Source of the DNA: a virus
Length of the DNA stretch: 17,677 bases
Virus genome (UHGV): UHGV-0132791
Strand: one strand, 5' to 3'
Shown: piece after piece, positions 538 to 12,187 of the stretch
Layout: every line of letters starts with the position of its first letter
Position numbering within the stretch: the first letter of the stretch is position 1
The notes under the pieces: generated by a model
Told to the model about the DNA's origin: nothing
Databases searched by the model: none
Seen by the model: the letters and a program-made list of their open reading frames with translations, nothing else
Program-made: the position numbers and the translations under genes

Positions 538-813
538 ATGTCTGTATATACAACCGCAGAATTACTGGCATCGACCCAGCATCACTTTAAGTTCGATCCG
601 CTGTTTCTGCGCCTGTTTTTCCGTGAAACCTATCCTTTCACCACGGAGAAAGTCTATCTCTCACAAATTCCGGGACTGGTAAACATGGCGCTGTACGTTT
701 CGCCGATTGTTTCCGGTGAGGTTATCCGATCCCGTGGCGGCTCCACCTCTGAATTTACGCCGGGTTATGTCAAACCCAAGCACTTAGCATGGCTTTCTGA
801 GGCTTTCGTGTAG
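538..813 (+). pseudogene. E: Major capsid protein gpE, 5' fragment (codons 1-82), interrupted by insertion; ends in 9 element-encoded codons and a stop
   Basis: Translation MSVYTTAELLA…FKFDPLFLRLFFRE.YPFTTEKVYLSQIPGLVNMALYVSPIVSGEVIRSRGGSTSEFTPGYVKPKH matches the lambda gpE N-terminus; similarity stops after codon CAC (781-783), followed by LAWLSEAFV* (TAG 811-813). Confidence 0.9.
773..782 (+). repeat. Left copy of 10-bp att core / target duplication (AACCCAAGCA)
   Basis: Exact 10-bp identity with 11397-11406, located exactly at the E breakpoint. Confidence 0.75.
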
Positions 814-892
814 TTGCTGGTTTTTACACTTAATCTTTTGATAATAAAGAATAAGTTTATCTGGTGCTTTCACTGAATTTTCCTCGTTATCT

Positions 893-930
893 GTGTGTTG
901 CAATCATCTCTGTATTGCAGCTTGTATTGC
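893..930 (+). repeat. Cluster of TGT(A/G)TTGCA direct repeats (candidate integrase arm-type sites), left end
   Basis: TGTGTTGCAA (895-904) and TGTATTGCAGCTTGTATTGC (911-930); a near-identical 20-mer (one mismatch) recurs at 11300-11319 near the right end. Confidence 0.5.
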
Positions 931-945
931 TTTTTGGGGCTAAAA

Positions 946-2181
946 ATGGCTGGCGAGAACAAACTGAGCGACAAAGCGCTTAAAGGATATCTGGGGAAAC
1001 CCAGAGAAAAGCAGATCACCATTGCTGATGGAAAGGGGCTTTCTATTCGTGTGAGTACTAAAGGGGCTGTGAGCTTTGTTTTCTTCTACAGGTTAGCAGG
1101 TGGCCGGGCTGCTCCGGTCTGGCTAACGTTGGGTAAATATCCTGATATGTCACTCAAACAGGCAAGGGAAAAGCGCGACGAGTGCCGTGGTTGGTTGGCT
1201 GACAAACGTGATCCGCGTATCCAGATTAAGATTCAGGCTGAAGAACGCTTAAAGCCGGTCACAGTGGAGGATGCACTAAATTACTGGTATGAAAATTACT
1301 GTAAGGTGCGTCGTAAAACTCATGCTGTAACGCTTGGCAGATTTCGAAAGCATATCTTTCCCTATATCGGTCATTTGCCCGTAAATGACACTCACCTATA
1401 TGAATGGCTGGACTGTTTTGACCGAATTAAACGTAATGCACCAGTTATGGCGGCGTATGTTTTTTCTGACACTAAATTAGCTCTTCGTTTTTGTCGGGTA
1501 CGCCAGTACGCGACGTGTGATGCTTTAAAGGATTTGCGCATGAGTGATGTGGGGCAGATTGCAGGTAAGCGGGATCGGGTTCTGGATGAAGCCGAACTCG
1601 GCCAGCTCTGGAAGGCAATTTTTGTCGAGCCTGATTTAAAACTAATGTCTGAATACACGCGAAAAATGTTTGTGCTTTGTACAGTATTTGGATGTCGAAT
1701 GAGTGAAGCCCGATTATCAGAATGGAGCGAATGGGATCTCGAAAGTTGGGTTTGGACTGTACCAAAAGATCACTCAAAAACTGGTGTTGAAATCGTCAGA
1801 CCAGTACCTGAAATTCTACGACAGTGGGTAACGGATGTTCACGAAGAGACAAAACATACTGGTTATGTGCTGGGAAGTCTGCGAATTAGAGAAAGCGTAA
1901 GCAAGATTGGGGGGAAAATCGGTAAACGTTTGGGCCATGAAAAACAATGGTCACTACACGACCTTAGAAGAACGCTATCTACTCATCTAAGTGATCTCGG
2001 TGTTGAATTTTATGTAGTAGAACAACTGTTAGGCCATGCGCTACCTGGCGTGGCAGGTGTTTACAACCGGAGTAAGTTTATGGCTAAAAAACTGGATGCT
2101 CTGGAACTCTGGACTACATATCTCAATAGCATCGCAGGTGCTGATTCAAAAGTGACAATCCTCAAACAAAAGGTTGGTTAA
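946..2181 (+). CDS. int: Tyrosine site-specific integrase, P4-like family
   Basis: ATG at 946 preceded by GGGG; N-terminal arm-binding-type region (…LSDKALKGY…DGKGLSIRVSTKGAVSFVFFYR…WLTLGKYPDMSLKQAR) and C-terminal catalytic motifs (LHDLRRT…LLGHA…GVYNRS). The ORF track starts at a GTG at 895; the ATG at 946 is preferred. Confidence 0.9.
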   Translation: MAGENKLSDKALKGYLGKPREKQITIADGKGLSIRVSTKGAVSFVFFYRLAGGRAAPVWLTLGKYPDMSLKQAREKRDECRGWLADKRDPRIQIKIQAEERLKPVTVEDALNYWYENYCKVRRKTHAVTLGRFRKHIFPYIGHLPVNDTHLYEWLDCFDRIKRNAPVMAAYVFSDTKLALRFCRVRQYATCDALKDLRMSDVGQIAGKRDRVLDEAELGQLWKAIFVEPDLKLMSEYTRKMFVLCTVFGCRMSEARLSEWSEWDLESWVWTVPKDHSKTGVEIVRPVPEILRQWVTDVHEETKHTGYVLGSLRIRESVSKIGGKIGKRLGHEKQWSLHDLRRTLSTHLSDLGVEFYVVEQLLGHALPGVAGVYNRSKFMAKKLDALELWTTYLNSIAGADSKVTILKQKVG

Positions 2182-2410
2182 CATGAAAAAAATGGCAATT
2201 GTTGATAAAAAGGGTCTGGAGTACATTCCTAACATTGACCGAATGATCCGTGAGAAAGAATGTCGGGAGCTAACCACTCTTGCGAACAGCACACGCTGGA
2301 AGCTGGAGAAGGAAGGAAAATTTCCTAAGCGGATCAAGATTGGTTCCACTGCTGTTGCATATCGTCTTTCAGAAGTGCAGGCATGGATTCGAGGTGAGTG
2401 GGTAGTTTAA
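2174..2410 (+). CDS. alpA: AlpA-family HTH protein (putative excisionase / transcriptional activator)
   Basis: Small ORF overlapping the int stop; …LTTLANSTRWKLEKEGKFPKRIKIGSTAVAYRLSEVQAWI is typical of the AlpA/Xis HTH family. ORF-track start is a TTG at 2174; the first ATG is at 2183. Confidence 0.7.
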   Translation: MVNMKKMAIVDKKGLEYIPNIDRMIREKECRELTTLANSTRWKLEKEGKFPKRIKIGSTAVAYRLSEVQAWIRGEWVV

Positions 2411-2435
2411 ATTATCTCAGAATAAAATATTATGA

Positions 2436-2471
2436 ATTACTGATTTGAGAATTTGTACTCAAATCAGTAAT
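2436..2471. terminator. 14-bp perfect inverted repeat between convergent genes (possible bidirectional terminator)
   Basis: ATTACTGATTTGAG (2436-2449) / loop 8 nt / CTCAAATCAGTAAT (2458-2471), between the alpA stop (2410) and the stop of the minus-strand gene (2480). AT-rich stem with no clean T-run, so weak. Confidence 0.35.
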
Positions 2472-2479
2472 AACATTCT

Positions 2480-3016
2480 TTATAAGAGATTAAATCCAAA
2501 TAAAGAGTAATCATATACCGGGGTGCATTGCATCCCACTGAATATGCTGATGTTTTTTTCTGTTTCTATCCTTTTTTCAATAAGTTGTTGTATATTTTTA
2601 CAGTACAATTTGTGTGTGATGTTATTATCGTAAGCCTGATATAGCAACGTCAATGTTGATGCTATGAAACATGCAGAAAGAAAATGAACTAGTACATGTG
2701 AGCGTTTTTTGGTTGTCCATGATGCATTCGCTTGTGAAATATAAATCATTCTGAGAATGATAATGATGATAGACAGTAACAGACCACTCAATAAAATAAG
2801 TATTGGGTTTGCGTATTTAATTAATGGTTGAGAGCAAAAAACTATTATAGCTCCTGTGACTGCGTATGAGAAAAAGGAGTAATTAAACTTCTTACTCCTT
2901 CTCTCAAGTATTTTAATTTCATCTTGTGTGGGGGGTTTAGATGCCTCCAATATAAGTTTATTAAATGTTTCTGTTATCTTGTTTTTTGTGTTTTTGGCTA
3001 TTTTTTTTAGATTCAT
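2480..3016 (-). CDS. Small membrane protein (two predicted hydrophobic helices), function unknown; AT-rich cargo gene
   Basis: 178-aa ORF with hydrophobic stretches (…AVTGAIIVFCSQPLIKYANPILILLSGLLLSIIIIILRMIYI… and …HVLVHFLSACFIASTLTLLYQAY…); visibly lower GC than its neighbours; GGAG-like SD upstream of the ATG (rc of 3014-3016). Confidence 0.6.
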   Translation of the reverse strand: MNLKKIAKNTKNKITETFNKLILEASKPPTQDEIKILERRSKKFNYSFFSYAVTGAIIVFCSQPLIKYANPILILLSGLLLSIIIIILRMIYISQANASWTTKKRSHVLVHFLSACFIASTLTLLYQAYDNNITHKLYCKNIQQLIEKRIETEKNISIFSGMQCTPVYDYSLFGFNLL

Positions 3017-3366
3017 AGCATTCTAACTCCCTTAACTTATTTATTACTTTCTCTTTATGATAAGAGAGGGGAATGACTTGGTAAAGTGATTTGTCATTAA
3101 TAATGATAATCCTTGCGATAAATATTTCTGCAAGTTATTTACCTGTTTGTTGCTATCTTGTTAAGCGTTGGGTGTGGTTTATGTTTGGAGCGACTTTATT
3201 TAATCGTGATTTTATGGATTTATATTTATATCCTGTAAGATAAGCGCATGTTAGTTCAGGAGTAGTGTCAGATAAAATTATTCGGAGTAGAACTACCTTT
3301 TCTGTTTATTGCCAGTATTTACATAGCAATGCGCCGTAGTTACTCACATCACGGCGCTGATACTAA

Positions 3367-3669
3367 TTATTCAGATTCTTTGGCTTTACGCCGCTGGAGT
3401 TCTTCACGAGCGACGGCTACGAGTTGCCCGATTTCCTCCGCTGCCTTGATGCCGATTTGTTCGACCTTAGCTAAGGCATCCAGTGAAGACACGAGGGGAT
3501 TTTCTCCGCTTCCTTCTGCCTGGCGGCGGGCGATCTCACCGCGCATGGCGGTTACTATGAATCCGGCGTTGCTTTCGCCGTCCAGTTTTACGGATTCCAT
3601 GCCCTCCATAACATCGTGGGGAACCCTGATCGTTGTCATTTGCGATTTTGCATTTTTGTATACAGACAT
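3367..3669 (-). CDS. Putative ribbon-helix-helix (Arc/CopG-like) transcriptional regulator; candidate element repressor
   Basis: 100-aa ORF; the N-terminus has an RHH-like pattern (β-strand TTIRVPHDV, helix, G-E-S-N turn, helix AGFIVTAMRGEIARR); transcribed divergently from the main element operon across a repeat-bearing intergenic region. Confidence 0.55.
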   Translation of the reverse strand: MSVYKNAKSQMTTIRVPHDVMEGMESVKLDGESNAGFIVTAMRGEIARRQAEGSGENPLVSSLDALAKVEQIGIKAAEEIGQLVAVAREELQRRKAKESE

Positions 3670-3877
3670 AGTTAATCACCAATTTGTTATGTGTATATCA
3701 CTATACACAAAAGTGAGATATAAAAACACTTGCAATGTATATCACCACAATATAATGTATATCTCATATTATGGTCGCTATGTATCTCACAATGATCGAT
3801 TCATAAAAACGACGAAACCCGGCAGTGCGCGAACACTAACCGGGCTTCTAACCAAACCGTTAAACGAGGTAACGATT
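3670..3877. promoter_or_regulatory. Divergent promoter/operator region with four ATGTATATC(A/T)C-type direct repeats
   Basis: TGTATATCAC at 3692-3701 and 3736-3745, TGTATATCTC at 3756-3765, TGTATCTCAC at 3781-3790; AT-rich; lies between the RHH gene start (3669) and the first gene of the plus-strand operon (3878). Confidence 0.5.
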
Positions 3878-4243
3878 ATGGCTGGAACACAGCATACCCA
3901 AACTCACCCTAAATTTATATACACCTTTCTGGCACTACACCACGACCGCATGGCAGATGGAGCAACTACGGTACATGTTGCCGCTGACACGCTGGTTGAT
4001 GCCCGCAAGATGGTTAAGGAGATGGGCTATACTGCGGCTTTCTGGAAAGGGCGTGAAGAAAACACGCTGTTTATTCAGAAATGCGAAAACAATTTCATCT
4101 GGCGTTTTATCGCCCTGAGCACCGCACAACCACGCGTAATACACATCGAGGCCGCCAGCGAACAGGAAGCCCGCCAACAATCCCCAACTGGCTGCGTGAT
4201 GATATTCGCCGCCCGTATTCGTCAGGAGGTATGCCGTGCTTAA
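3878..4243 (+). CDS. Hypothetical protein (first gene of element early operon)
   Basis: ATG at 3878 with GAGG 9-12 nt upstream. The ORF-track ORF 3329..4243 extends upstream antisense to the RHH gene; that extension is judged spurious. Confidence 0.55.
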   Translation: MAGTQHTQTHPKFIYTFLALHHDRMADGATTVHVAADTLVDARKMVKEMGYTAAFWKGREENTLFIQKCENNFIWRFIALSTAQPRVIHIEAASEQEARQQSPTGCVMIFAARIRQEVCRA

Positions 4244-4421
4244 AACCTTCCGTGTATTTGCTCGTGCGGTTAACCCACTAGGCCACACAATTGGTATCGC
4301 TCAGAACGTGAAGGCTGTTAATGTTCAGACGGCTATTGCTGCGGTGAGAAGCGAATCATCAGAATATGGCTTATCACAAGTCATTATTTCAGCAGTGTAT
4401 GAATTAAAAGAGGTGCATTAA
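4236..4421 (+). CDS. Hypothetical small protein
   Basis: GTG start at 4236 preceded by a strong AGGAGG (4224-4229); overlaps the upstream stop; 61 aa. Confidence 0.45.
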   Translation: MLKTFRVFARAVNPLGHTIGIAQNVKAVNVQTAIAAVRSESSEYGLSQVIISAVYELKEVH

Positions 4422-4612
4422 TGCAGGAAATTACATTACACGAAGCCGCTGAACGTGCGCACCAGACAGAAATTATTTGCCGCCTTCTTGAGGTATACCC
4501 GAACAAAATTACAGATGCTGATATATCCGCACTGGCGAGCCTACTGGCGCGTCTTTCGGGAAGTGTCGCTAGTTTTTTGATTGAGGAAGAAAGTAAGCTG
4601 GTGGGGGATTAA
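4421..4612 (+). CDS. Hypothetical small protein
   Basis: ATG overlapping the upstream stop (TAATG at 4419-4423), AGAGG SD; 63 aa. Confidence 0.5.
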   Translation: MQEITLHEAAERAHQTEIICRLLEVYPNKITDADISALASLLARLSGSVASFLIEEESKLVGD

Positions 4613-4834
4613 ATGAATACAGAACGGGAAGTCTTTTTTAAATTGTTAGCATGTGCAGAAAGTTCATTAACTTTAAATAATTCAGCAAAAGCAATATTAA
4701 ATATGTGGCTTGATTGCATAAATGACAATGAAGATGCAAATATTGCTTATGGCCTGTTGTCACTTATTGATGAAGCAGCAGAAAAACTCAATGACGCAAT
4801 AAATAGTGCCCTGCTATCAAATAAGTCGAGTTAA
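4613..4834 (+). CDS. Hypothetical small protein (AT-rich)
   Basis: ATG immediately after the preceding stop; 73 aa; lower GC than flanking genes. Confidence 0.45.
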   Translation: MNTEREVFFKLLACAESSLTLNNSAKAILNMWLDCINDNEDANIAYGLLSLIDEAAEKLNDAINSALLSNKSS

Positions 4835-4851
4835 GTCGAGGAATAAATAAT

Positions 4852-5151
4852 ATGGAAATGAAAAATTCTGGCTTTATTGCCAGCGGCCCCGCTCGGCCTG
4901 AATTTATGAACGGCGATATTTACCGCGATAAATACGGCGGCACGGTAACGATTAAAGGCGTGGCAGAACGGCGCATTACTTACCGCCGTGAGGGGTATAG
5001 CTATGACTGCGTGATGCCTGTTTATCAGTTCCGGCGTGATTTTTCCCTGGTATATGCCGCACCCCGCAGTAAGCCCATCAGCAGGGAAAAAGCGCGGGGA
5101 AACATCCAGAAAATGAAAAGCATGATTAACGCATTCAGGGGCAAAAAATGA
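4852..5151 (+). CDS. Hypothetical protein
   Basis: 99-aa ORF with GAGG SD; its stop overlaps the pri-rep start (ATGA at 5148-5151). Confidence 0.5.
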   Translation: MEMKNSGFIASGPARPEFMNGDIYRDKYGGTVTIKGVAERRITYRREGYSYDCVMPVYQFRRDFSLVYAAPRSKPISREKARGNIQKMKSMINAFRGKK

Positions 5152-6899
5152 AACTGGCACCGAACTTAAAAAAACAGCCACGCGACAGACTGACAGAGGT
5201 AATCATCTTTGCAGGTAGTGATGCGTGGAGCCATGCGAAAGAGTGGCAGGAATGGGCGGGTAAACATATTGCCGCCGACGATGTGCCGCCTGTCGTGCTG
5301 GCTGATGAGCAACTGAAAAATATCACCGATTACCGGATCATTGATGAAGATCGTCAGTGTGTGCGTGTTTACCGCGCAGGACATATCACAGAGCACAGCA
5401 TGACGCAGATTGTTACGTTATTGGCTGTGGCTGGAGTGAAGACCGTACACGAATACGCGGGGATTACTGACACCAGCCCCGTGGATTTATCCGACCAGTT
5501 GCCGCGACTCAAAGAGGAATGCGAGCGTGGGGAAAGTCTGGTGCTTAATCTTCCGACGAAGCAAAAGGCGCAACTTTCACAGATGGCAGACAGTGAACGT
5601 GCACAACTACTTGCCGATCGCTTTGATGGTGTGTGTGTTCATGCAGAAAGTGAAATCGTCCACGTATGGCGCGGCGGGGTATGGTGTCCGGTCAGCACAA
5701 TGGAGCTGAGCCGCGAAATGGTGGCGATCTATTCAGAGCACAGGGCCACATTCAGCAAGCGTGCAATTAATAACGCCGTGGAGGCGTTAAAAGTTATTGC
5801 CGACCCCATGGGGGAGCCGTCCGGTGATTTGCTACCGTTCGCCAATGGTGTGCTTGACCTGAAAACGGGGGAATTTTCCCCGCACTCGCCGGAGAACTGG
5901 ATCACCACGCACAACGGCATTGAGTACACGCCACCAGCACCAGGGGAGAACATCCGCGACAACGCGCCAAACTTTCATAAATGGCTTGATCACGCAGCCG
6001 GAAAAGACCCGCGCAAGATGATGCGTATATGTGCCGCGCTGTACATGATTATGGCGAACCGGTACGACTGGCAGATGTTTATTGAGGCCACCGGAGAGGG
6101 CGGTAGCGGTAAAAGTACATTCACACACATAGCCAGCCTTCTGGCAGGGAAACAGAACACGGTAAGCGCTGAAATGACATCGCTTGATGATGCTGGTGGA
6201 CGTGCGCAGGTTGTCGGGAGTCGTCTTATCGTCCTGGCTGACCAGCCGAAATATACAGGCGAAGGCACGGGCATCAAGAAAATCACGGGCGGCGACCCCG
6301 TGGAAATAAACCCGAAATATGAAAAGCGTTTTACGGCGGTAATCAGGGCGGTGGTGCTGGCTACCAACAATAACCCGATGATATTCACCGAACGGGCCGG
6401 AGGTGTGTCACGTCGTCGCGTAATTTTCCGCTTCGACAATATCGTTAGCGAGGCAGAAAAGGACAAGGATTTACCGGAGAAGGTCGCGGCTGAAATCCCC
6501 GTGATTATCCGCAGATTGCTGGCAAACTTTGCTGATCCAGAAAAGGCGCGACATTTGTTGATTGAACAGCGCGACGGTGAAGAAGCACTGGCGATAAAGC
6601 AACAGACGGATCCGGTTATTGAGTTTTGCCAGTTTCTGAATTTTCTGGAGGAAGCGCGCGGCCTGATGATGGGTGGCGGTGGCGATTCCGTGAAGTACAC
6701 GACCAGAAACAGCCTTTACCGCGTCTATCTGGCGTTTATGGCATACGCAGGCAGAAGCAAGCCGCTAAACGTGGCTGATTTCAGCAAGGCCATGAAGCCA
6801 GCGGCGAAAGTTTACGGATGTGAATATATAACGCGCAGGGTTAAAGGACTTACGCAAACCAATGTGACAACAACAGAGGATTGCGACGCGTTTTTATAA
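5148..6899 (+). CDS. Replication initiator, primase-helicase type (P4 alpha C-terminal / PICI Pri-Rep-like SF3 ATPase)
   Basis: 583 aa; Walker A GEGGSGKST (6093-6119), Walker B-like LIVLAD; overall pattern of the phage/plasmid primase P4-family C-terminal domain; followed directly by an iteron array. Confidence 0.85.
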   Translation: MKLAPNLKKQPRDRLTEVIIFAGSDAWSHAKEWQEWAGKHIAADDVPPVVLADEQLKNITDYRIIDEDRQCVRVYRAGHITEHSMTQIVTLLAVAGVKTVHEYAGITDTSPVDLSDQLPRLKEECERGESLVLNLPTKQKAQLSQMADSERAQLLADRFDGVCVHAESEIVHVWRGGVWCPVSTMELSREMVAIYSEHRATFSKRAINNAVEALKVIADPMGEPSGDLLPFANGVLDLKTGEFSPHSPENWITTHNGIEYTPPAPGENIRDNAPNFHKWLDHAAGKDPRKMMRICAALYMIMANRYDWQMFIEATGEGGSGKSTFTHIASLLAGKQNTVSAEMTSLDDAGGRAQVVGSRLIVLADQPKYTGEGTGIKKITGGDPVEINPKYEKRFTAVIRAVVLATNNNPMIFTERAGGVSRRRVIFRFDNIVSEAEKDKDLPEKVAAEIPVIIRRLLANFADPEKARHLLIEQRDGEEALAIKQQTDPVIEFCQFLNFLEEARGLMMGGGGDSVKYTTRNSLYRVYLAFMAYAGRSKPLNVADFSKAMKPAAKVYGCEYITRRVKGLTQTNVTTTEDCDAFL

Positions 6900-6904
6900 T
6901 TTTA

Positions 6905-7145
6905 GACAAAAGCCCTCTACCTCCTCTACCTAAAGAAAATAAATATATATTATTCAATATGATAAGAAGGTAGAGGGTCAGGTAGAAGGCAAATAAAAGC
7001 CCTCTACCTCCTCCACCATGATTAAGGTCATTTGTGAGGGGCGGGTAGAGGATGGGTAGAGGGCCCCGAAAGCCCTCTACCCATCTGAAAGCCGCGCCAT
7101 TACTGACCTGAAAGATGATTAGGTAGAGAGGTAGAGGAGGTGCAC
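6905..7145. repeat. Iteron array / putative element replication origin
   Basis: About 11 copies of CCTCTACC / GGTAGAGG in both orientations (e.g. 6913-6930, 6969-6989, 6999-7017, 7043-7063, 7073-7082, 7122-7140), including the inverted pair GGGTAGAGGGC…GCCCTCTACCC (7054-7082), flanking an AT-rich stretch (6931-6968); immediately 3' of the replication gene. Confidence 0.7.
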
Positions 7146-7185
7146 CACATTTCAAAACTTTTTAAACGAGGGGGTAAAAATAAAA

Positions 7186-7443
7186 ATGCACACATCAGGA
7201 AAACTGAACAAACATATAAAGCCACATTACCGCGCCCTTGATATGGCTGAACATTGGCTAAGGGTGGCGATTAAGGCAATAGATCGCAACGCCGGGGAAG
7301 GATACGCGAAAGCACATCCCGAACTGATAAGCGCATTCATGACAACGGCGGCTGCAAACTTTGCCACGCTGACCGAACGGGAGATTGCCGAAGCGGAGGA
7401 AGTGACAACCATCAATATTAAGTCCGGAGAGCAGGCAGCTTGA
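7186..7443 (+). CDS. Hypothetical protein
   Basis: 85-aa ORF, ATG at 7186 preceded by GAGGGGG; stop overlaps the start of the next gene. Confidence 0.5.
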   Translation: MHTSGKLNKHIKPHYRALDMAEHWLRVAIKAIDRNAGEGYAKAHPELISAFMTTAAANFATLTEREIAEAEEVTTINIKSGEQAA

Positions 7444-7850
7444 CGGCGCAAATAGCAGCTTACGGGCGGCTGGTGGACGACCCACAGGTAAAACATACCA
7501 GCAAGGGAGCACCCATGACACTGGCACGGATGACGGTATCTTTGCCATGCAGCCAGGCAGATGACGGAACGGCGACGATGTGGTTATCTGTCCTGGCGTT
7601 TGGCAGACAAGCCGACGCGCTGGCAAAGCATCACAAAGGCGAACTCCTGAGCGTGGCGGGTAATATGCAGGTGAGCCAGTGGAGCGGACAGAACGGTGAA
7701 ACGCGGCAGCGCTGGCAGGTTATCGCAGACAGCGTAATCAGTGCGCGAACGGTGCGACCTGGCGGGAACAGACGTAAAACCACAGGCACACAGGGCAACA
7801 CACCACCAGCGGGAGGGGATGATCTCTACGGTGACAATATTCCATTCTGA
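7440..7850 (+). CDS. ssb: Single-stranded DNA-binding protein (SSB-like, OB fold)
   Basis: Pattern resembling E. coli SSB (…GRLVDDPQV…, …WLSVLAFGRQADALAKHHKGELLSVAGNMQVSQWSGQNGETRQRWQVIAD…) and a C-terminal tip …DNIPF like the SSB DDDIPF tail. Start is a TTG at 7440 overlapping the upstream stop; exact start uncertain. Confidence 0.7.
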   Translation: MTAQIAAYGRLVDDPQVKHTSKGAPMTLARMTVSLPCSQADDGTATMWLSVLAFGRQADALAKHHKGELLSVAGNMQVSQWSGQNGETRQRWQVIADSVISARTVRPGGNRRKTTGTQGNTPPAGGDDLYGDNIPF

Positions 7851-7858
7851 ACGCACAG

Positions 7859-7878
7859 GCCGGAGAAATCCGGCTTTT
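7859..7878 (+). terminator. Rho-independent terminator downstream of ssb
   Basis: GCCGGA (7859-7864) / GAAA / TCCGGC (7869-7874) followed by TTTT (7875-7878). Confidence 0.6.
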
Positions 7879-8114
7879 ATCAGTTGAGTCCGTCACACCA
7901 CGCAAAAAAAAGGCCGGAATATTCCGACCCTTTCATCACCAAAGAGAATAATTTATGTCTTTGAACTTGTAACGCTGTACAGAATGACACGTAACGCCGG
8001 ATAAATAAACGAAGATTGAAACTTTGCACAATATTGCATAGCAATGCATAAAGATGCCGATCAAGGCAGATGATAAAATTAATACGACACTTTTACTAAG
8101 TATTAAGAGGTTAT

Positions 8115-9155
8115 ATGAGTGATTTATATTCGCCAGCGGAGTTAATACAGACTGTTAATGCTGAAGATATTCAATGGCAGATTAACTCTTTATTTATAAA
8201 CCTGTTTTTTAAGCGAGTCGTTACATTTGAGACGCGGGATATTGCGCTTGATATTATTGACGATCCAGACATCCCGATGGCTGCATTTTGTTCCCCTATG
8301 GTTGGTAGTAAAGTATCACGCGATGAAGGCTACGAATCAAAAGTAATTCGCCCTGGCTACATGAAGCCAAAAAGTAGTATAGACCCAAATAAAATAGCCG
8401 TTCGTCAACCAGGCGTATCACCGGAACAATTCAATGCATATTCATCACGCAATTTCAAAATAAAGCGAGCGATGGTAAGACAAGCGCAGGCCATTCGCGC
8501 ACGTATTGAATGGCTTGCTGTTCAGGCAATCACAACGGGGAAAAATATCATTGAGGGCGATGGCATTGAACGTTATGAACTGGACTGGAATATAAAACCA
8601 CAAAATATTATCACGCAGTCCGGCGGCACGGAGTGGAGCGGTAGAGATTTATCAACATTTGATCCAAATGATGACATCGAAGAGTACGCAGAAATCAGCG
8701 AAGGGACTACAAATATCATCGTAATGGGACGCAACGTATGGAAAAAATACCGCGCCTTTAAAGCAGTAAAAGATTGCCTTGATACTCGACGGGGATCTAA
8801 TTCCGTTCTTGAAACGGCCCTGAAAAATCTTGGGGATTCCGTCAGTTTTAAGGGTTACGTAGGCGATGTGGCTATTGTTGTGTATAGCGGACGTTATACC
8901 GACGAGGACGGAACAGAAAAATATTTCCTTGATCCTGATTTGATGGTTCTTGGCAATACATCACTTCAGGGCATCGTTGCATACGGTGGCATTCAGGATC
9001 CGGAGCTAATCCGAATGGGGCTGACTAAAGCCGAACTCGCACCGAAAAACTACATTGTGCCTGGAGATCCGGCTATTGAGTACGTACAAACGCACTCTGC
9101 ACCACAGCCAATACCGGCCCGCATCAATCGTTTTGTTACCGTTCGCATTGGTTAA
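8115..9155 (+). CDS. Element-encoded major capsid protein, lambda gpE paralogue
   Basis: 346 aa; clearly homologous but divergent from gpE (shared blocks PGYMKPK, ITQSGGTEWS.RD.ST.DP.DDIEEYA, KAVKD.LDTRRGSNS.LETA.K.LG..VS.KGY.GDVAIVVYSG.Y, MVLGNT); strong SD AAGAGG. Confidence 0.9.
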   Translation: MSDLYSPAELIQTVNAEDIQWQINSLFINLFFKRVVTFETRDIALDIIDDPDIPMAAFCSPMVGSKVSRDEGYESKVIRPGYMKPKSSIDPNKIAVRQPGVSPEQFNAYSSRNFKIKRAMVRQAQAIRARIEWLAVQAITTGKNIIEGDGIERYELDWNIKPQNIITQSGGTEWSGRDLSTFDPNDDIEEYAEISEGTTNIIVMGRNVWKKYRAFKAVKDCLDTRRGSNSVLETALKNLGDSVSFKGYVGDVAIVVYSGRYTDEDGTEKYFLDPDLMVLGNTSLQGIVAYGGIQDPELIRMGLTKAELAPKNYIVPGDPAIEYVQTHSAPQPIPARINRFVTVRIG

Positions 9156-9164
9156 GGGGGAGCA

Positions 9165-9506
9165 ATGGCTACTCATTACACTGAACTCATGGCTGGCACT
9201 GAAGCACTGGTTACTACGTTGGGGATATTTTCAGCTAATAAAGGGGTAATTCCTGCATTTACGCCACTGATGCAAGAAGATGCAACTGGTGCACTGGTGG
9301 TATGGGATGGAACGAGCGCAGGCAAAGCTGTTTATGTTTCCGCTGTACAAATCGATACAGCGACAAAAACGCAGGCTCAGGTTTATAAAACCGGCGTCTT
9401 AAATGTTGATGCTCTGAACTGGCCTGAGTCTGTAACACAACTATCAGCAAAAGTTGCTGCGTTTGTTGGCTCAGGTATTTCTGTTCAGCCGCTGGCACGT
9501 GTGTGA
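9165..9506 (+). CDS. Element-encoded head decoration protein, lambda gpD paralogue
   Basis: 113 aa; gpD-like blocks (TPLM…LVVWDGT…YKTG…WPE…) and length; immediately downstream of the capsid paralogue, with SD AAGGGGGAG. Confidence 0.8.
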   Translation: MATHYTELMAGTEALVTTLGIFSANKGVIPAFTPLMQEDATGALVVWDGTSAGKAVYVSAVQIDTATKTQAQVYKTGVLNVDALNWPESVTQLSAKVAAFVGSGISVQPLARV

Positions 9507-9515
9507 GGTACGAGA

Positions 9516-9860
9516 ATGATTGAAAGAGATAGTCAGCTACGAGAGCTATTAGATATCGATGACAAAATGCGCTTAAGCGAGCGTCTTGTCGATATGAATC
9601 AGGTGATGGAACTTACAACCCTGAGTCGCCGTACACTGCTAAACCTTGAGGCTCGTGGAGAGTTCCCTGAGCGTGTGCAGGTTACGGAAGGGCGTAAGGC
9701 TTGGTATTTAAGCGAGGTTGTTGAGTGGATTAACAATATCCCGCGAGCATCAAACTATTGCCTCGTACCCACACCGGAAAAACCTGATGCGGCGTTATGC
9801 CTCAAGATTGAACGCGCCAGGCGTAATGCCCTGAAAGGGCGCAATAAGTTGATTGGTTGA
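9516..9860 (+). CDS. Second AlpA-family HTH regulator
   Basis: 114 aa; …MNQVMELTTLSRRTLLNLEARGEFPERVQVTEGRKAWYLSEVVEWI… is AlpA/HTH_17-like; located between the decoration gene and the cos site. Confidence 0.7.
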   Translation: MIERDSQLRELLDIDDKMRLSERLVDMNQVMELTTLSRRTLLNLEARGEFPERVQVTEGRKAWYLSEVVEWINNIPRASNYCLVPTPEKPDAALCLKIERARRNALKGRNKLIG

Positions 9861-9868
9861 TGAAATTA

Positions 9869-9895
9869 GGGCCCGCTCTGGCTGGCGGGTCCTTT
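9869..9895 (+). terminator. GC-rich hairpin plus short T run after second AlpA-like gene
   Basis: GGGCCCGC (9869-9876) / 8-nt loop / GCGGGTCC (9885-9892) with one G·U pair, followed by TTT. Confidence 0.35.
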
Positions 9896-9913
9896 CCGGC
9901 AATCCGGCAGACT

Positions 9914-9950
9914 ACGGGGCGGAAGGCGCGCGGGTTTTCGCTATTTATGA
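9914..9950. other. cos-like site (cosN region) of the element
   Basis: ACGGGGCGGAAGGCGCGCGGGTTTTCGCTATTTATGA: flanks match the lambda cos left-end sequence as I recall it (…ACGGGGCGGCGACCTCGCGGGTTTTCGCTATTTATGA…), but the central hexamer differs (AAGGCG vs CGACCT); lies about 150 bp upstream of the Nu1-like TerS, as in lambda. Confidence 0.6.
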
Positions 9951-10076
9951 GCATTTTTAGGGGACTGGTGGTGGTTTTGTTGTTCGCTATATCTGTATGA
10001 ATAATAAGAGAAAAACACAATCAACACACCAACCTGAAACAGTAATTAAGTTGTGGTATCAATGAAATTGCACCTG

Positions 10077-10604
10077 ATGAACAAAAAAAACATGGCAAAA
10101 AGTTGCCGTGTAAGCGCCACTGCGTTCGATAAGTGGGGAGTGATTCCCGTCGAGCGTAAGGGCCGCGAGGCGTTTTATGATGTCGCCAGTGTAATAGATA
10201 ATCGGGTTAACAATGCAATCAGCCAGATTACAAACGAAACGGGCGAGATTGATGATGATGAACTCCTACGAGTCAGGATCAGATTGCTGACAGCACAGGC
10301 AGAGGCGCAGGAGCTTAAAAACGAGCGCGAACGCGGCGACGTTATTGATACAGCGTTTTGTATATACGTGCTTTCAAAACTGGCGAGTCAGATTTCTTCA
10401 ATCATGGACAGCCTGCCGCTTGCCATGACAAGGAAGTTTCCCGACATGAAGCCGTCTATGCTGGATGGACTGAAAAAAGAAGTTATCAGAGCCTGTAACG
10501 CATGCGCAAAACTTGACGAAAACATACCGCTGATGCTGTCCGATTATCTGATGGAAACTGCCGGAAACGTACCGGATAAGTTGCAGCTGAATAAAGATAA
10601 GTAA
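10077..10604 (+). CDS. Terminase small subunit, lambda Nu1-like
   Basis: Homology to lambda Nu1 (MNKKNMAKS…YDVASVID…LLTAQAEAQELKNERERGDVIDTAFCIYVLSKLASQISSIMDSLPLAMTRKFPDMK vs Nu1 …LTRAQADAQELKNARDSAEVVETAFCTFVLSRIAGEIASILDGLPLSVQRRFPELE). ORF track begins at a GTG at 10053; ATG 10077 is chosen by alignment with the Nu1 N-terminus. Confidence 0.85.
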   Translation: MNKKNMAKSCRVSATAFDKWGVIPVERKGREAFYDVASVIDNRVNNAISQITNETGEIDDDELLRVRIRLLTAQAEAQELKNERERGDVIDTAFCIYVLSKLASQISSIMDSLPLAMTRKFPDMKPSMLDGLKKEVIRACNACAKLDENIPLMLSDYLMETAGNVPDKLQLNKDK

Positions 10605-10615
10605 CGTAGTACGCT

Positions 10616-10897
10616 ATGACTGAATCCGAAATACTGCGATTAATCCGCCGTGCTTGTGGAATCAGCAAGCAGCATGACGAACAGGCCACGCAGCCGGACA
10701 GCGTGATCGCCGAAAATTACGCGCGTGTTGTTGCTGATGTGATGCGCCGTGATGGTATTGAGCTTAACGGCGTGGATATGCGCGACATACGGATCAGATT
10801 CCTTGAGTTGCTGGCATACCGTCGCCGTTCTCAACAACGAAGGGAGAGCGCGAAAAACACTTATCAGTGGAAGAAGCCGGAACGGTTGCGGCGGTAG
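10616..10897 (+). CDS. Hypothetical basic protein downstream of TerS
   Basis: 93-aa ORF, ATG at 10616 twelve nt after the TerS stop; no recognisable similarity to terminase large subunit. Confidence 0.45.
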   Translation: MTESEILRLIRRACGISKQHDEQATQPDSVIAENYARVVADVMRRDGIELNGVDMRDIRIRFLELLAYRRRSQQRRESAKNTYQWKKPERLRR

Positions 10898-11235
10898 ATT
10901 CCTGATATTCAGGAAAACCACGAATCCGGGGGTTTACTGGCGCGGTTACGGCGGTGACACACACCGAGGCAGAACAATTACCGTAGGTTAAAGCGACAGT
11001 ATTCACACCAAAGGCAGAAATTAGCTGTTAACGTAACTGACTGATATTTTCGGGAACAGCCAACGGCTGAGGCCGGAGCTATAAAAATAGCTTTGGGTAC
11101 AGTCCTCAGTTTTGAGGGATGTTAACCAACTGAATAATAAGCAAACCTCAAAATTGAGTTTTGTATCTGCCTGAGTTATTTCTGTGCTAACTTGCTGATA
11201 TTCCCGATAACGCAAAATTGCGTTGGCTGGTGGGT

Positions 11236-11255
11236 GAGTTGCAGATCTGCAACTC
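11236..11255. repeat. 20-bp perfect palindrome GAGTTGCAGATCTGCAACTC near right end of element
   Basis: Exact dyad symmetry over 20 bp, about 140 bp inside the right att core; contains the TTGCA motif shared with the arm-type repeats. Confidence 0.6.
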
Positions 11256-11299
11256 GGCTATGAAACTTAATAATCGAACAGCATGTAAATTCATTTCTG

Positions 11300-11320
11300 T
11301 GTATTGCAGCATGTATTGCA
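11300..11320 (+). repeat. TGTATTGCAGCATGTATTGCA direct repeats (candidate arm-type sites), right end
   Basis: Matches 911-930 (TGTATTGCAGCTTGTATTGC) with one mismatch, in the same orientation, about 77 bp inside the right core. Confidence 0.5.
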
Positions 11321-11396
11321 ACATAGTCATTCTGGTAGAGATTATGCTCTATTTTTCCTCTTATATCATTCACATACTTACGTCATTGACTCATGT

Positions 11397-11406
11397 AACC
11401 CAAGCA
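11397..11406 (+). repeat. Right copy of 10-bp att core / target duplication (AACCCAAGCA)
   Basis: Identical to 773-782; preceded by an in-frame TAA (11396-11398) that ends the element-side frame. Confidence 0.75.
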
Positions 11407-12187
11407 TGAGGTGAATCCGCAGATGACCCTGCGTCGCCTGCCGGATGAAGATCCGCAGAACCTGGCTGACCCGGCTTACCGTCGTCGCCGTATTATTCGG
11501 CAGAATATGCTGGATGAAAATCTGGCGATTGCCCAGGTCGAAGAGATGCAGGCAGTTTCTGCCGTGCTTAAGGGCAAATATACCATGACCGGTGAAGCCT
11601 TCGATCCGGTTGAGGTGGATATGGGCCGCAGTGAGGCGAATAACATCACGCAGTCCGGCGGCACGGAGTGGAGCAAGCGTGACAAGTCCACGTATGACCC
11701 GACCGACGATATCGAAGCCTACGCGCTGAACGCCAGCGGTGTGGTGAATATCATCGTGTTCGATCCGAAAGGCTGGGCGCTGTTCCGTTCCTTCAAAGCC
11801 GTCAAGGAGAAGCTGGATACCCGTCGCGGCTCTCATTCCGAGCTGGAGACAGCGGTAAAAGACCTGGGCAAAGCGGTGTCCTATAAGGGAATGTATGGCG
11901 ATGTGGCCATCGTCGTGTATTCCGGACAGTACGTGGAAAACGGCGTCAAAAAGAACTTCCTGCCGGACAACACGATGGTGCTGGGGAACACTCAGGCTCG
12001 CGGTCTGCGCACCTATGGCTGCATTCAGGATGCGGACGCACAGCGCGAAGGCATTAACGCCTCTGCCCGTTACCCGAAAAACTGGGTGACCACCGGCGAT
12101 CCGGCGCGTGAGTTCACCATGATTCAGTCAGCACCGCTGATGCTGCTGGCTGATCCTGATGAGTTCGTGTCCGTACAACTGGCGTAA
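11399..12187 (+). pseudogene. E: Major capsid protein gpE, 3' fragment (codons ~80-341), separated from its 5' part by the insertion
   Basis: Translation PKHEVNPQMTLRRLPDEDPQNLADPAYRRRRII…DEFVSVQLA* matches the lambda gpE C-terminal 260 residues almost exactly; there is no start codon or RBS of its own at the homology boundary (the ORF track starts at an internal GTG at 11411). Confidence 0.9.

Follow-up and report, generated by a model that had tools for sequence, protein, structure and literature searches.

The 17,677-nt viral sequence UHGV-0132791, the whole of which we call the window, carries a satellite of the helper-embedded phage-inducible chromosomal island (HE-PICI) type, inserted into gene E of a lambdoid prophage. 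Between positions 9887 and 10604 this satellite possesses what we propose to be its packaging module: a lambda-type cosQ and cosN, a replaced cosB and an intact gene for a small terminase subunit (TerS) of the Nu1 family. In the mechanism that we favor, cosQ, cosN and the 22-bp flank to the right of cosN would have been kept in a form that a lambda-type large terminase subunit (TerL) cuts and uses for termination, while the helper cosB would have been swapped for a satellite-specific site, here called R3' (9966-9984), that the satellite TerS reads via a winged-helix domain of the N15 class. The R3'-bound TerS would then position the helper TerL on the satellite cosN, either directly by its C-terminal domain or in mixed oligomers with the helper TerS, and the satellite concatemers would be cut at 9917/9928 and packaged into helper-derived heads. 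Taken as a whole, this placing of a helper TerL on the satellite cosN by an R3'-TerS pair strikes us as reasonably probable. The literature that we searched gave no account of a cos-type satellite TerS of the Nu1 family with its own cosB, and the HE-PICI paper (PMC10111431) is silent on such a TerS.

The cos site and its replaced cosB

On its sequence, the segment 9887-9950 is a lambda-type cosQ-cosN (plus strand, as are all the features below unless stated otherwise), for which we predict cleavage at 9917/9928. The packaging-termination signal cosQ is the heptamer GGGTCCT at 9887-9893, located 30 nt upstream of the left nick, which is the lambda spacing; the wider block around it, GGGTCCTTTC, is kept in all 15 of the sequences upstream of this TerS that were aligned or inspected, and also in the phage cos sites compared. 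The 12-nt cohesive end of cosN, GGGCGGAAGGCG (9917-9928; predicted nicks before 9917 on the top strand and after 9928 on the bottom strand), aligns with those of lambda, 21, N15 and YDC107_1. Its left half, GGGCGG, is conserved, as are the flanking CG dinucleotides in the context ACG/GGGCGGAAGGCG/CG, and the right flank, which corresponds to the lambda I2 region (CGCGGGTTTTCGCTATTTATGA, 9929-9950), matches lambda at 22 of 22 positions. The initial annotation of this DNA, made from the letters alone, had placed a cos-like left end exactly at 9917-9928, and the cosQ spacing, the CG flanks and the unbroken right flank all bear this out. When 9880-10100 was compared by BLASTN with 50,697 phage records, the matches were confined to 9885-9957 and were always phage cos sites; the highest identity among them was 94.5% (E=1e-23), in phages YDC107_1 and PhiR46_1, and a match was also obtained to the cos annotated in phage 21.

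With respect to lambda, the cohesive end differs at bp 7, 8, 9, 10 and 12 alone, within the half of cosN (bp 7-12) that is reported to be tolerant of changes and naturally variable (PMC4669245). Phage YDC107_1 has the same variant, GGGCGGAAGGCG, as does the helper prophage of one of the related composites (L009). Three cohesive-end variants are in circulation among the cos sites of the window, L005, L007, L008, L009 and L027, namely GGGCGGCGACCT, GGGCGGAAGGCG and GGGCGTCAGGCG, and their differences all fall at bp 6-12. Between a satellite and the helper in which it is embedded, the cohesive ends are identical in two of five composites and different at 5 positions in the other three, but because bp 7-12 tolerate change, such matching weighs neither way.

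The right edge of cosN is a sharp mosaic junction. To its right, the 1007 bp of 9929-10935, which contain the satellite cosB (cosB'), terS and an open reading frame (ORF) of 93 aa, are 100% identical to the element in strain FDAARGOS_1296. To its left, the 28 bp of 9901-9928, made up of the cosQ-cosN spacer and the cohesive end, have 11 differences from the FDAARGOS_1296 element, and the cos of phage YDC107_1 and that of the L009 helper are only 2 mismatches away. In L027 the satellite and its helper have an identical cosQ-cosN spacer, which is of a distinct type. The junction fits a history of exchange at cosN, and it appears from these comparisons that satellites and phages have traded the cosQ-cosN segment, one of its boundaries being at cosN; the route would have been either short-patch recombination or end joining after packaging. 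We take this as side evidence that the cos of the satellite has been active in the past.

Past about 9957 the similarity to phage cosB ceases in the BLASTN search just described, and at the DNA level this cosB is in none of the 50,697 phage records. The R sequences of lambda (the R3-I1-R2-R1 cosB of lambda or 21 type) are absent from the region. In their place, at bp +50 to +68 from the left end, is the candidate TerS-binding site R3', TGGTGGTGGTTTTGTTGTT (9966-9984), at the position of both R3-lambda (bp 50-65) and R3-N15 (bp 48-59, GAGGTTGTTGTT). The spacing between cosN and R3 is critical in lambda. Upstream regions were compared among E. coli, Enterobacter/Citrobacter-type TerS loci, Kosakonia and Superficieibacter (a 13-sequence alignment and two further genera), and in this comparison, where the TerS of the non-E. 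coli loci is just 57-60% identical to that of the window, R3' is the best-conserved intergenic block besides cosQ and cosN.

The distribution of this site follows that of the protein. Each of the 15 fetched loci with this TerS has the motif GGTGGTGKTKTTGTT at a single site, roughly 85-100 bp upstream of the start codon, and none of the 10 fetched loci that are without this TerS has it (lambda, 21, N15, YDC107_1, CFT073, NRG857c and Pseudomonas relatives); within the 17.7-kb window the motif is found once, against 0.16 occurrences expected by chance. An element-specific cosB had been surmised in the initial annotation, and the replacement of the lambda R3-I1-R2-R1 array by a conserved block that strictly co-occurs with this TerS upholds that view. 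In the satellite, the block at bp 50-68 has the form (GGT)3(T/G)TTGTTGTT. In N15 the cosB is simple, with one critical site, R3 (GAGGTTGTTGTT, bp 48-59), of which bp 54-59 are critical (PMC4669245).

Close to where R2 lies in lambda, a second and weak candidate site is inverted at 10021-10035 on the minus strand (bp about +105 to +119; reverse complement AGGTTGGTGTGTTGA). It ranks second in conservation among the blocks of the upstream alignment and its inverted match to R3' is 11/18 by eye, but the repeat search did not detect it. That search returned only short repeats that are probably due to chance, and the direct repeat 9937-9949/9983-9995 is unconserved in relatives. A manual search found no good consensus for an IHF site between R3' and the candidate inverted site.

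The satellite TerS, its selection and its distribution

The terS gene (10062-10604) encodes 180 aa, the start codon being that used by RefSeq in near-identical genomes, and its RefSeq label is already "terminase small subunit". Membership of the Nu1 family, rightly recognized in the initial annotation, is evident from the match to Pfam Phage_Nu1 (PF07471; 87 bits against a cut-off of 30, residues 34-151) and from the full-length match to phrog_57 (terminase small subunit; residues 2-174, E=2e-51). Among phage proteins its closest relative is N15 gp1, at 47.6% identity; with lambda Nu1 the identity is 38% over 180 aa. The gene does adjoin cos, as had been noted, but 133 nt, and not the 150 bp or so given there, separate cosN from the ATG. 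Equally, the reported lack of a large terminase stands, since tblastn of lambda gpA and N15 gp2 against the whole window had a best E of 1.7 and no TerL gene is adjacent. NCBIfam gave no matches to the protein, and phmmer searches of the PDB, which contains lambda TerS 1-98 and RppC, returned nothing significant for either TerS or the 93-aa ORF; TerS matched neither 1J9I nor 6HN7.

Judged by its sequence, the DNA-binding domain of this TerS, which the initial annotation had called diverged, is no orphan but of the N15 class. Over the first 50 residues the identity to N15 gp1 is 58-60%, the recognition-helix core (AFDKWGV) being the same and the wing similar; the corresponding figures for lambda Nu1 are 27% (residues 1-50) and, in a separate alignment, 38% (residues 6-50). 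Phage N15 shares with the satellite its DNA-binding domain, a compact cosB with a G/T-rich triplet repeat at the R3 position, and a lambda-like cosQ and cosN. However, N15 is autonomous and has its own TerL, the C-terminal half of its gp1 is about 80% identical to lambda Nu1 (39-51% for the satellite), and the site sequences themselves are different, (GGT)3TTTGTTGTT in the satellite and GAGGTTGTTGTT in N15. In two Pseudomonas-type relatives (L024 and L025), a TerS with the same AFDKWGV recognition helix is preceded by GAGGTTGGTTGTTGTGTTGTT. The available sequences suggest that sites built of G/T triplet repeats may go with DNA-binding domains of this class in general.

The terS gene is under purifying selection, and this across at least four named genera. 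Pairwise comparisons gave overall dN/dS values of 0.21 and 0.15, with 0.02-0.13 in the N-terminal half, the full range of omega being 0.02-0.27. Within the family the DNA-binding domain is the most conserved part of the protein (76-100% in the comparisons made), compared with 36-62% for the last 42 residues. Together, the co-occurrence with R3', the conservation of R3' and the constraint on the DNA-binding half suggest that it is for sequence-specific recognition of DNA that the protein has been selected, and it is R3' that TerS would be expected to bind.

The two ends of the protein have not always traveled together. The TerS of Superficieibacter sp. L023 (10001-10504) is chimeric: its DNA-binding domain is of the satellite type (70% identical to that of the window and 26% to that of lambda), and its C-terminal half is lambda-like (86% and 64% identical to lambda in two C-terminal segments). 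The PICI that carries it adjoins mug, rpoD and dnaG and lies outside any prophage. N15 gp1 is built in the same way as this chimera. We conclude that the half of TerS that binds DNA and the half that faces TerL evolve as modules of their own.

The packaging module is also present in HE-PICIs located within the portal gene (L009 and L027) and in a conventional E. coli PICI between cspD and clpS (L026). Among complete E. coli genomes the cosB'-terS stretch was found in 181 of 5426 and the rppA module in 97 of 5426, and a cos-type satellite TerS thus appears to be at least as common in this species as Rpp. Throughout the matches listed from these 181 genomes the annotation shows the 180-aa ORF intact, as a terminase small subunit, and intact homologues of TerS are found in several other named genera. 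Scans of genome contigs retrieved 0 loci with a single-protein query and 4 loci with an alignment query, which makes for a thin taxonomic census.

Proposed recruitment of the helper TerL and competing explanations

With no TerL of its own, the satellite probably borrows that of its helper by means of this module, and a direct contact between its TerS and the helper gpA is plausible. For a full-length TerS, direct capture of TerL is the simplest reading, with a mixed oligomer of the Rpp kind as a serious alternative. In comparison with lambda Nu1, the central self-association region of the satellite protein is about 51% identical and the C-terminal 41 residues 39%.

Several observations nevertheless weigh against the mechanism as we have drawn it. 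The 39% just mentioned applies to the very residues that align to the gpA-binding region, and there the gp1 of phage 21 is 31% identical to Nu1. Phage 21 gp1 is not interchangeable with Nu1 for gpA binding. With a non-interchangeable protein at 31%, and with an N-terminal identity of 27-38%, the contrast drawn in the initial annotation between a Nu1-like C-terminus and a diverged N-terminus does not find support. Moreover, the two C-terminal types of the E. coli satellites are about equidistant (12-17/41, or 29-41%) from the lambda-type, the 21-type and a third type of helper TerS, and helpers that differ in the N-terminus of their TerL can contain the same C-terminal type (L008 and L027); because one C-terminal type goes with two types of TerL, a pairing between the TerS C-terminus and the helper TerL would be conjectural. 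The resemblance of the DNA site to that of N15 is also imperfect: in register, R3' and R3-N15 agree at only 6/12 positions, and an agreement of 9/12 requires a shift of 9 bp, despite the critical spacing of R3 in lambda. Finally, an AlphaFold2 model based on an 11-sequence alignment was too poor for use (pLDDT 49, pTM 0.29).

The E. coli cos PICIs studied so far use Rpp, for which a requirement for the helper TerS has been demonstrated. One of them, EcCICFT073 with its cos1-RppA system (Fillol-Salom et al. 2018/2019; Murialdo and Feiss 2022), is, like the element in the window, a cos-type lambdoid satellite without TerL. The gene order is the same in both: an E-like gene, a D-like gene, one intervening gene (non-homologous between the two), a helper-type cosQ-cosN, a non-phage cosB, the packaging gene and the 93-aa ORF. 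The difference is in the slot for the packaging gene, where EcCICFT073 has rppA and the window a full-length Nu1-family TerS complete with its C-terminal region. By analogy, the satellite TerS might co-assemble with the helper TerS through its DNA-binding and central domains, such that the mixed oligomer reads R3' and the helper subunit makes the contact with TerL, an arrangement already proposed for Rpp with TerS.

We consider this second mode of action rather unlikely, albeit deserving of attention. It would be in keeping with the placement of terS in the exact rppA slot, after cosQ-cosN and a non-phage cosB and before the 93-aa ORF, and also with the fact that it is in the central self-association domain (51-60%), and not in the C-terminus, that the protein most resembles the TerS of helpers; it would likewise be in keeping with the presence of one satellite C-terminal type alongside different types of helper TerL. 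However, the window TerS has no BLASTP match to RppA, and neither RppC nor the N-terminal domain of lambda TerS was matched by phmmer in the PDB. A full-length Nu1-like C-terminal region has furthermore been retained under purifying selection, and was swapped for a lambda-like one in one lineage, whereas the Rpps are proteins of 139-154 aa with no C-terminal TerL-binding region (PMC9026076). The simpler proposition that the TerS is itself an Rpp protein was ruled out by the lack of similarity to RppA and RppC, the length of 180 aa and the Nu1-like C-terminal region.

The two satellites also have something in common in their cosB sequences, both of which contain a (GGT)3/(ACC)3 core at bp ~51-64, in opposite orientation. 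The (GGT)3 core of R3' is at 9967-9975, and its EcCICFT073 counterpart, ACCACCACC, lies at bp 55-63 (L006, ~2612-2620, minus strand), in the stretch that Murialdo and Feiss proposed as R3-PICI. As a rough estimate, made without a shuffle test, the chance of a given 9-mer in so narrow an interval is of the order of 1e-4.

Packaging redirection, as the initial annotation called it, and the interference with the helper that might come with it are things that we infer. Taken to the extreme, TerS could be mainly a weapon that titrates the helper TerL or poisons the helper TerS, with the satellite itself being packaged, at low specificity, by the shared cosQ-cosN. Helper interference is common among satellites, but such a role seems improbable given the strict co-occurrence of R3' with the DNA-binding domain, the conservation of R3' and the fact that the strongest constraint is on the DNA-binding half. 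Even more improbable, in our estimation, is that the module is a relic, i.e. a late gene with a cos fragment derived from an N15-like or lambdoid phage and now devoid of function. The late zones of PICIs are known to capture helper late genes (PMC10111431) and the related element 11capE holds a truncated Nu1 remnant; yet the ORF considered here is intact in the matches listed from the 181 E. coli genomes and has homologues in other named genera, its omega lies far under 1, the motif upstream of it has been conserved, and none of the 50,697 phage records has this cosB at the DNA level.

The idea of a PICI TerS is not in itself new: there is the TerS of the SaPIs, the pathogenicity islands that Staphylococcus aureus carries, TerS is a core component in SatelliteFinder, and it has been stated that "some GN PICIs contain a terS homolog". 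The pac SaPIs (SaPI1, SaPIbov1) would be analogous in concept to the window element, in that a satellite TerS reads its own packaging site and uses the helper TerL. They differ in that they package by the headful (pac) mechanism, live in Gram-positive hosts and have a separate Ppi for interference, whereas the module in the window is of the cos type and of the Nu1 family.

The routes characterized so far are thus the satellite TerS of the pac SaPIs and the Rpp adaptor of the E. coli cos PICIs, and a cos-type TerS with its own cosB would, if our mechanism is true, constitute a third. We put forward, tentatively, a broader version of this proposal, in which enterobacterial PICIs, both helper-embedded and conventional, would have a third way of cos hijacking where the DNA-binding domain and R3' form a fixed pair, and the TerL-facing half and the cosQ-cosN are swapped among the lambdoid helpers that are met. 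The N15 type of specificity works in one direction: lambda DNA is packaged by the terminase of N15, but N15 DNA is not packaged by that of lambda. If the same were true here, packaging of the satellite would be beyond a helper on its own, and the satellite TerS could still engage the helper DNA.

The module would provide a natural system for the question of how a Nu1-type TerS brings a TerL that is foreign to it into place at cosN, which Murialdo and Feiss, with regard to Rpp, brought up as unsettled in the lambda field, and it provides a case of the DNA-binding and TerL-facing halves of TerS evolving apart. Such a short, orthogonal TerS/cos pair could perhaps also serve for the selective packaging of engineered DNA by lambda-type machinery.

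The satellite and its setting

The element is an HE-PICI of the published capE type, at the site E_Phage_cap_E_80 (PMC10111431). The insert of ~10.6 kb (783-11406) sits within the capsid gene, E, of the lambdoid prophage and is co-oriented with it, with the 10-bp identity block AACCCAAGCA at both junctions: at the left one inside the helper gene E (attL, 773-782), where it matches the E_Phage_cap_E_80 site, and at the right one (attR, 11397-11406), where the same 10-mer precedes the resumption of the helper gene. The reading frame of E is broken after ...GYVKPKH and continues at 11407. Outside the insert the window is a lambdoid late region, with the order D, E N-terminal part, [insert], E C-terminal part, FI, FII, Z, U, V, G, T, H. 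That the whole might be a degraded lambdoid prophage was ruled out by the precise att repeats that split gene E and by the PICI organization of the insert.

The ORFs of the insert follow the zone order integration/accessory/replication/late, an organization that agrees with that of the RefSeq relatives: an integrase and AlpA are followed by small ORFs, then by a D5-type primase and SSB, and lastly by an E-like capsid protein, a D-like decoration protein, an AlpA-like regulator, TerS and the 93-aa ORF. The prototype of the HE-PICIs, 11capE (Tommasini, Mageeney and Williams 2023), was reported without terS and presumably uses the helper cos (PMC10111431). In strain NRG857c, 11capE has at the same position a lambda-type cos with the lambda R sequences and a truncated Nu1 start, followed by a HEPN/DUF262 cassette. 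The two elements are alike in their gene E site, identity block (AACCCAAGCA), orientation, zone order and place of cos, and their capsid, decoration and AlpA-like genes are homologous. They differ in that 11capE has a lambda-type cosB and a truncated Nu1 where the window element has R3' and an intact TerS. Since 11capE has a lambda-type cosB and its TerS-bearing relatives R3', this is the same satellite family with a different packaging module.

While the helper E is interrupted, the satellite has its own homologues of E (8115-9155, 346 aa, PF03864) and D (9165-9506, 113 aa, PF02924); the EcCICFT073 equivalents of these two genes have been examined for a role in lambda interference (PMC6092414). 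Directly upstream of cos is a second regulator of the AlpA family (9516-9860), with 114 aa here against 127 aa in relatives, a difference of ~40 bp; in EcCICFT073 this slot is occupied by an unrelated ORF of 137 aa. On the other side of terS, the 93-aa ORF (10616-10897, phrog_1561), to which no function is assigned, has a counterpart of 73% identity in EcCICFT073, where it is the final ORF and comes after rppA. This ORF is missing from the Enterobacter/Citrobacter relatives, and so is probably not essential to the module. A scan for promoters and terminators yielded nothing exceeding chance.

There are two variable cargo slots in this family, which in relatives hold defense-like genes. The one after alpA (2480-3016, minus strand) contains a TIR-domain protein in L008 and L017 and a BRO-N protein in L009; the one after terS (10900-11396) contains HEPN and DUF262 in L007, an Abi-family protein in L008, and FRG and DUF3892 in L012. 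In the window, the slot after terS has no ORF larger than ~65 aa, and that after alpA is occupied by an ORF of 178 aa that is, by inspection, hydrophobic.

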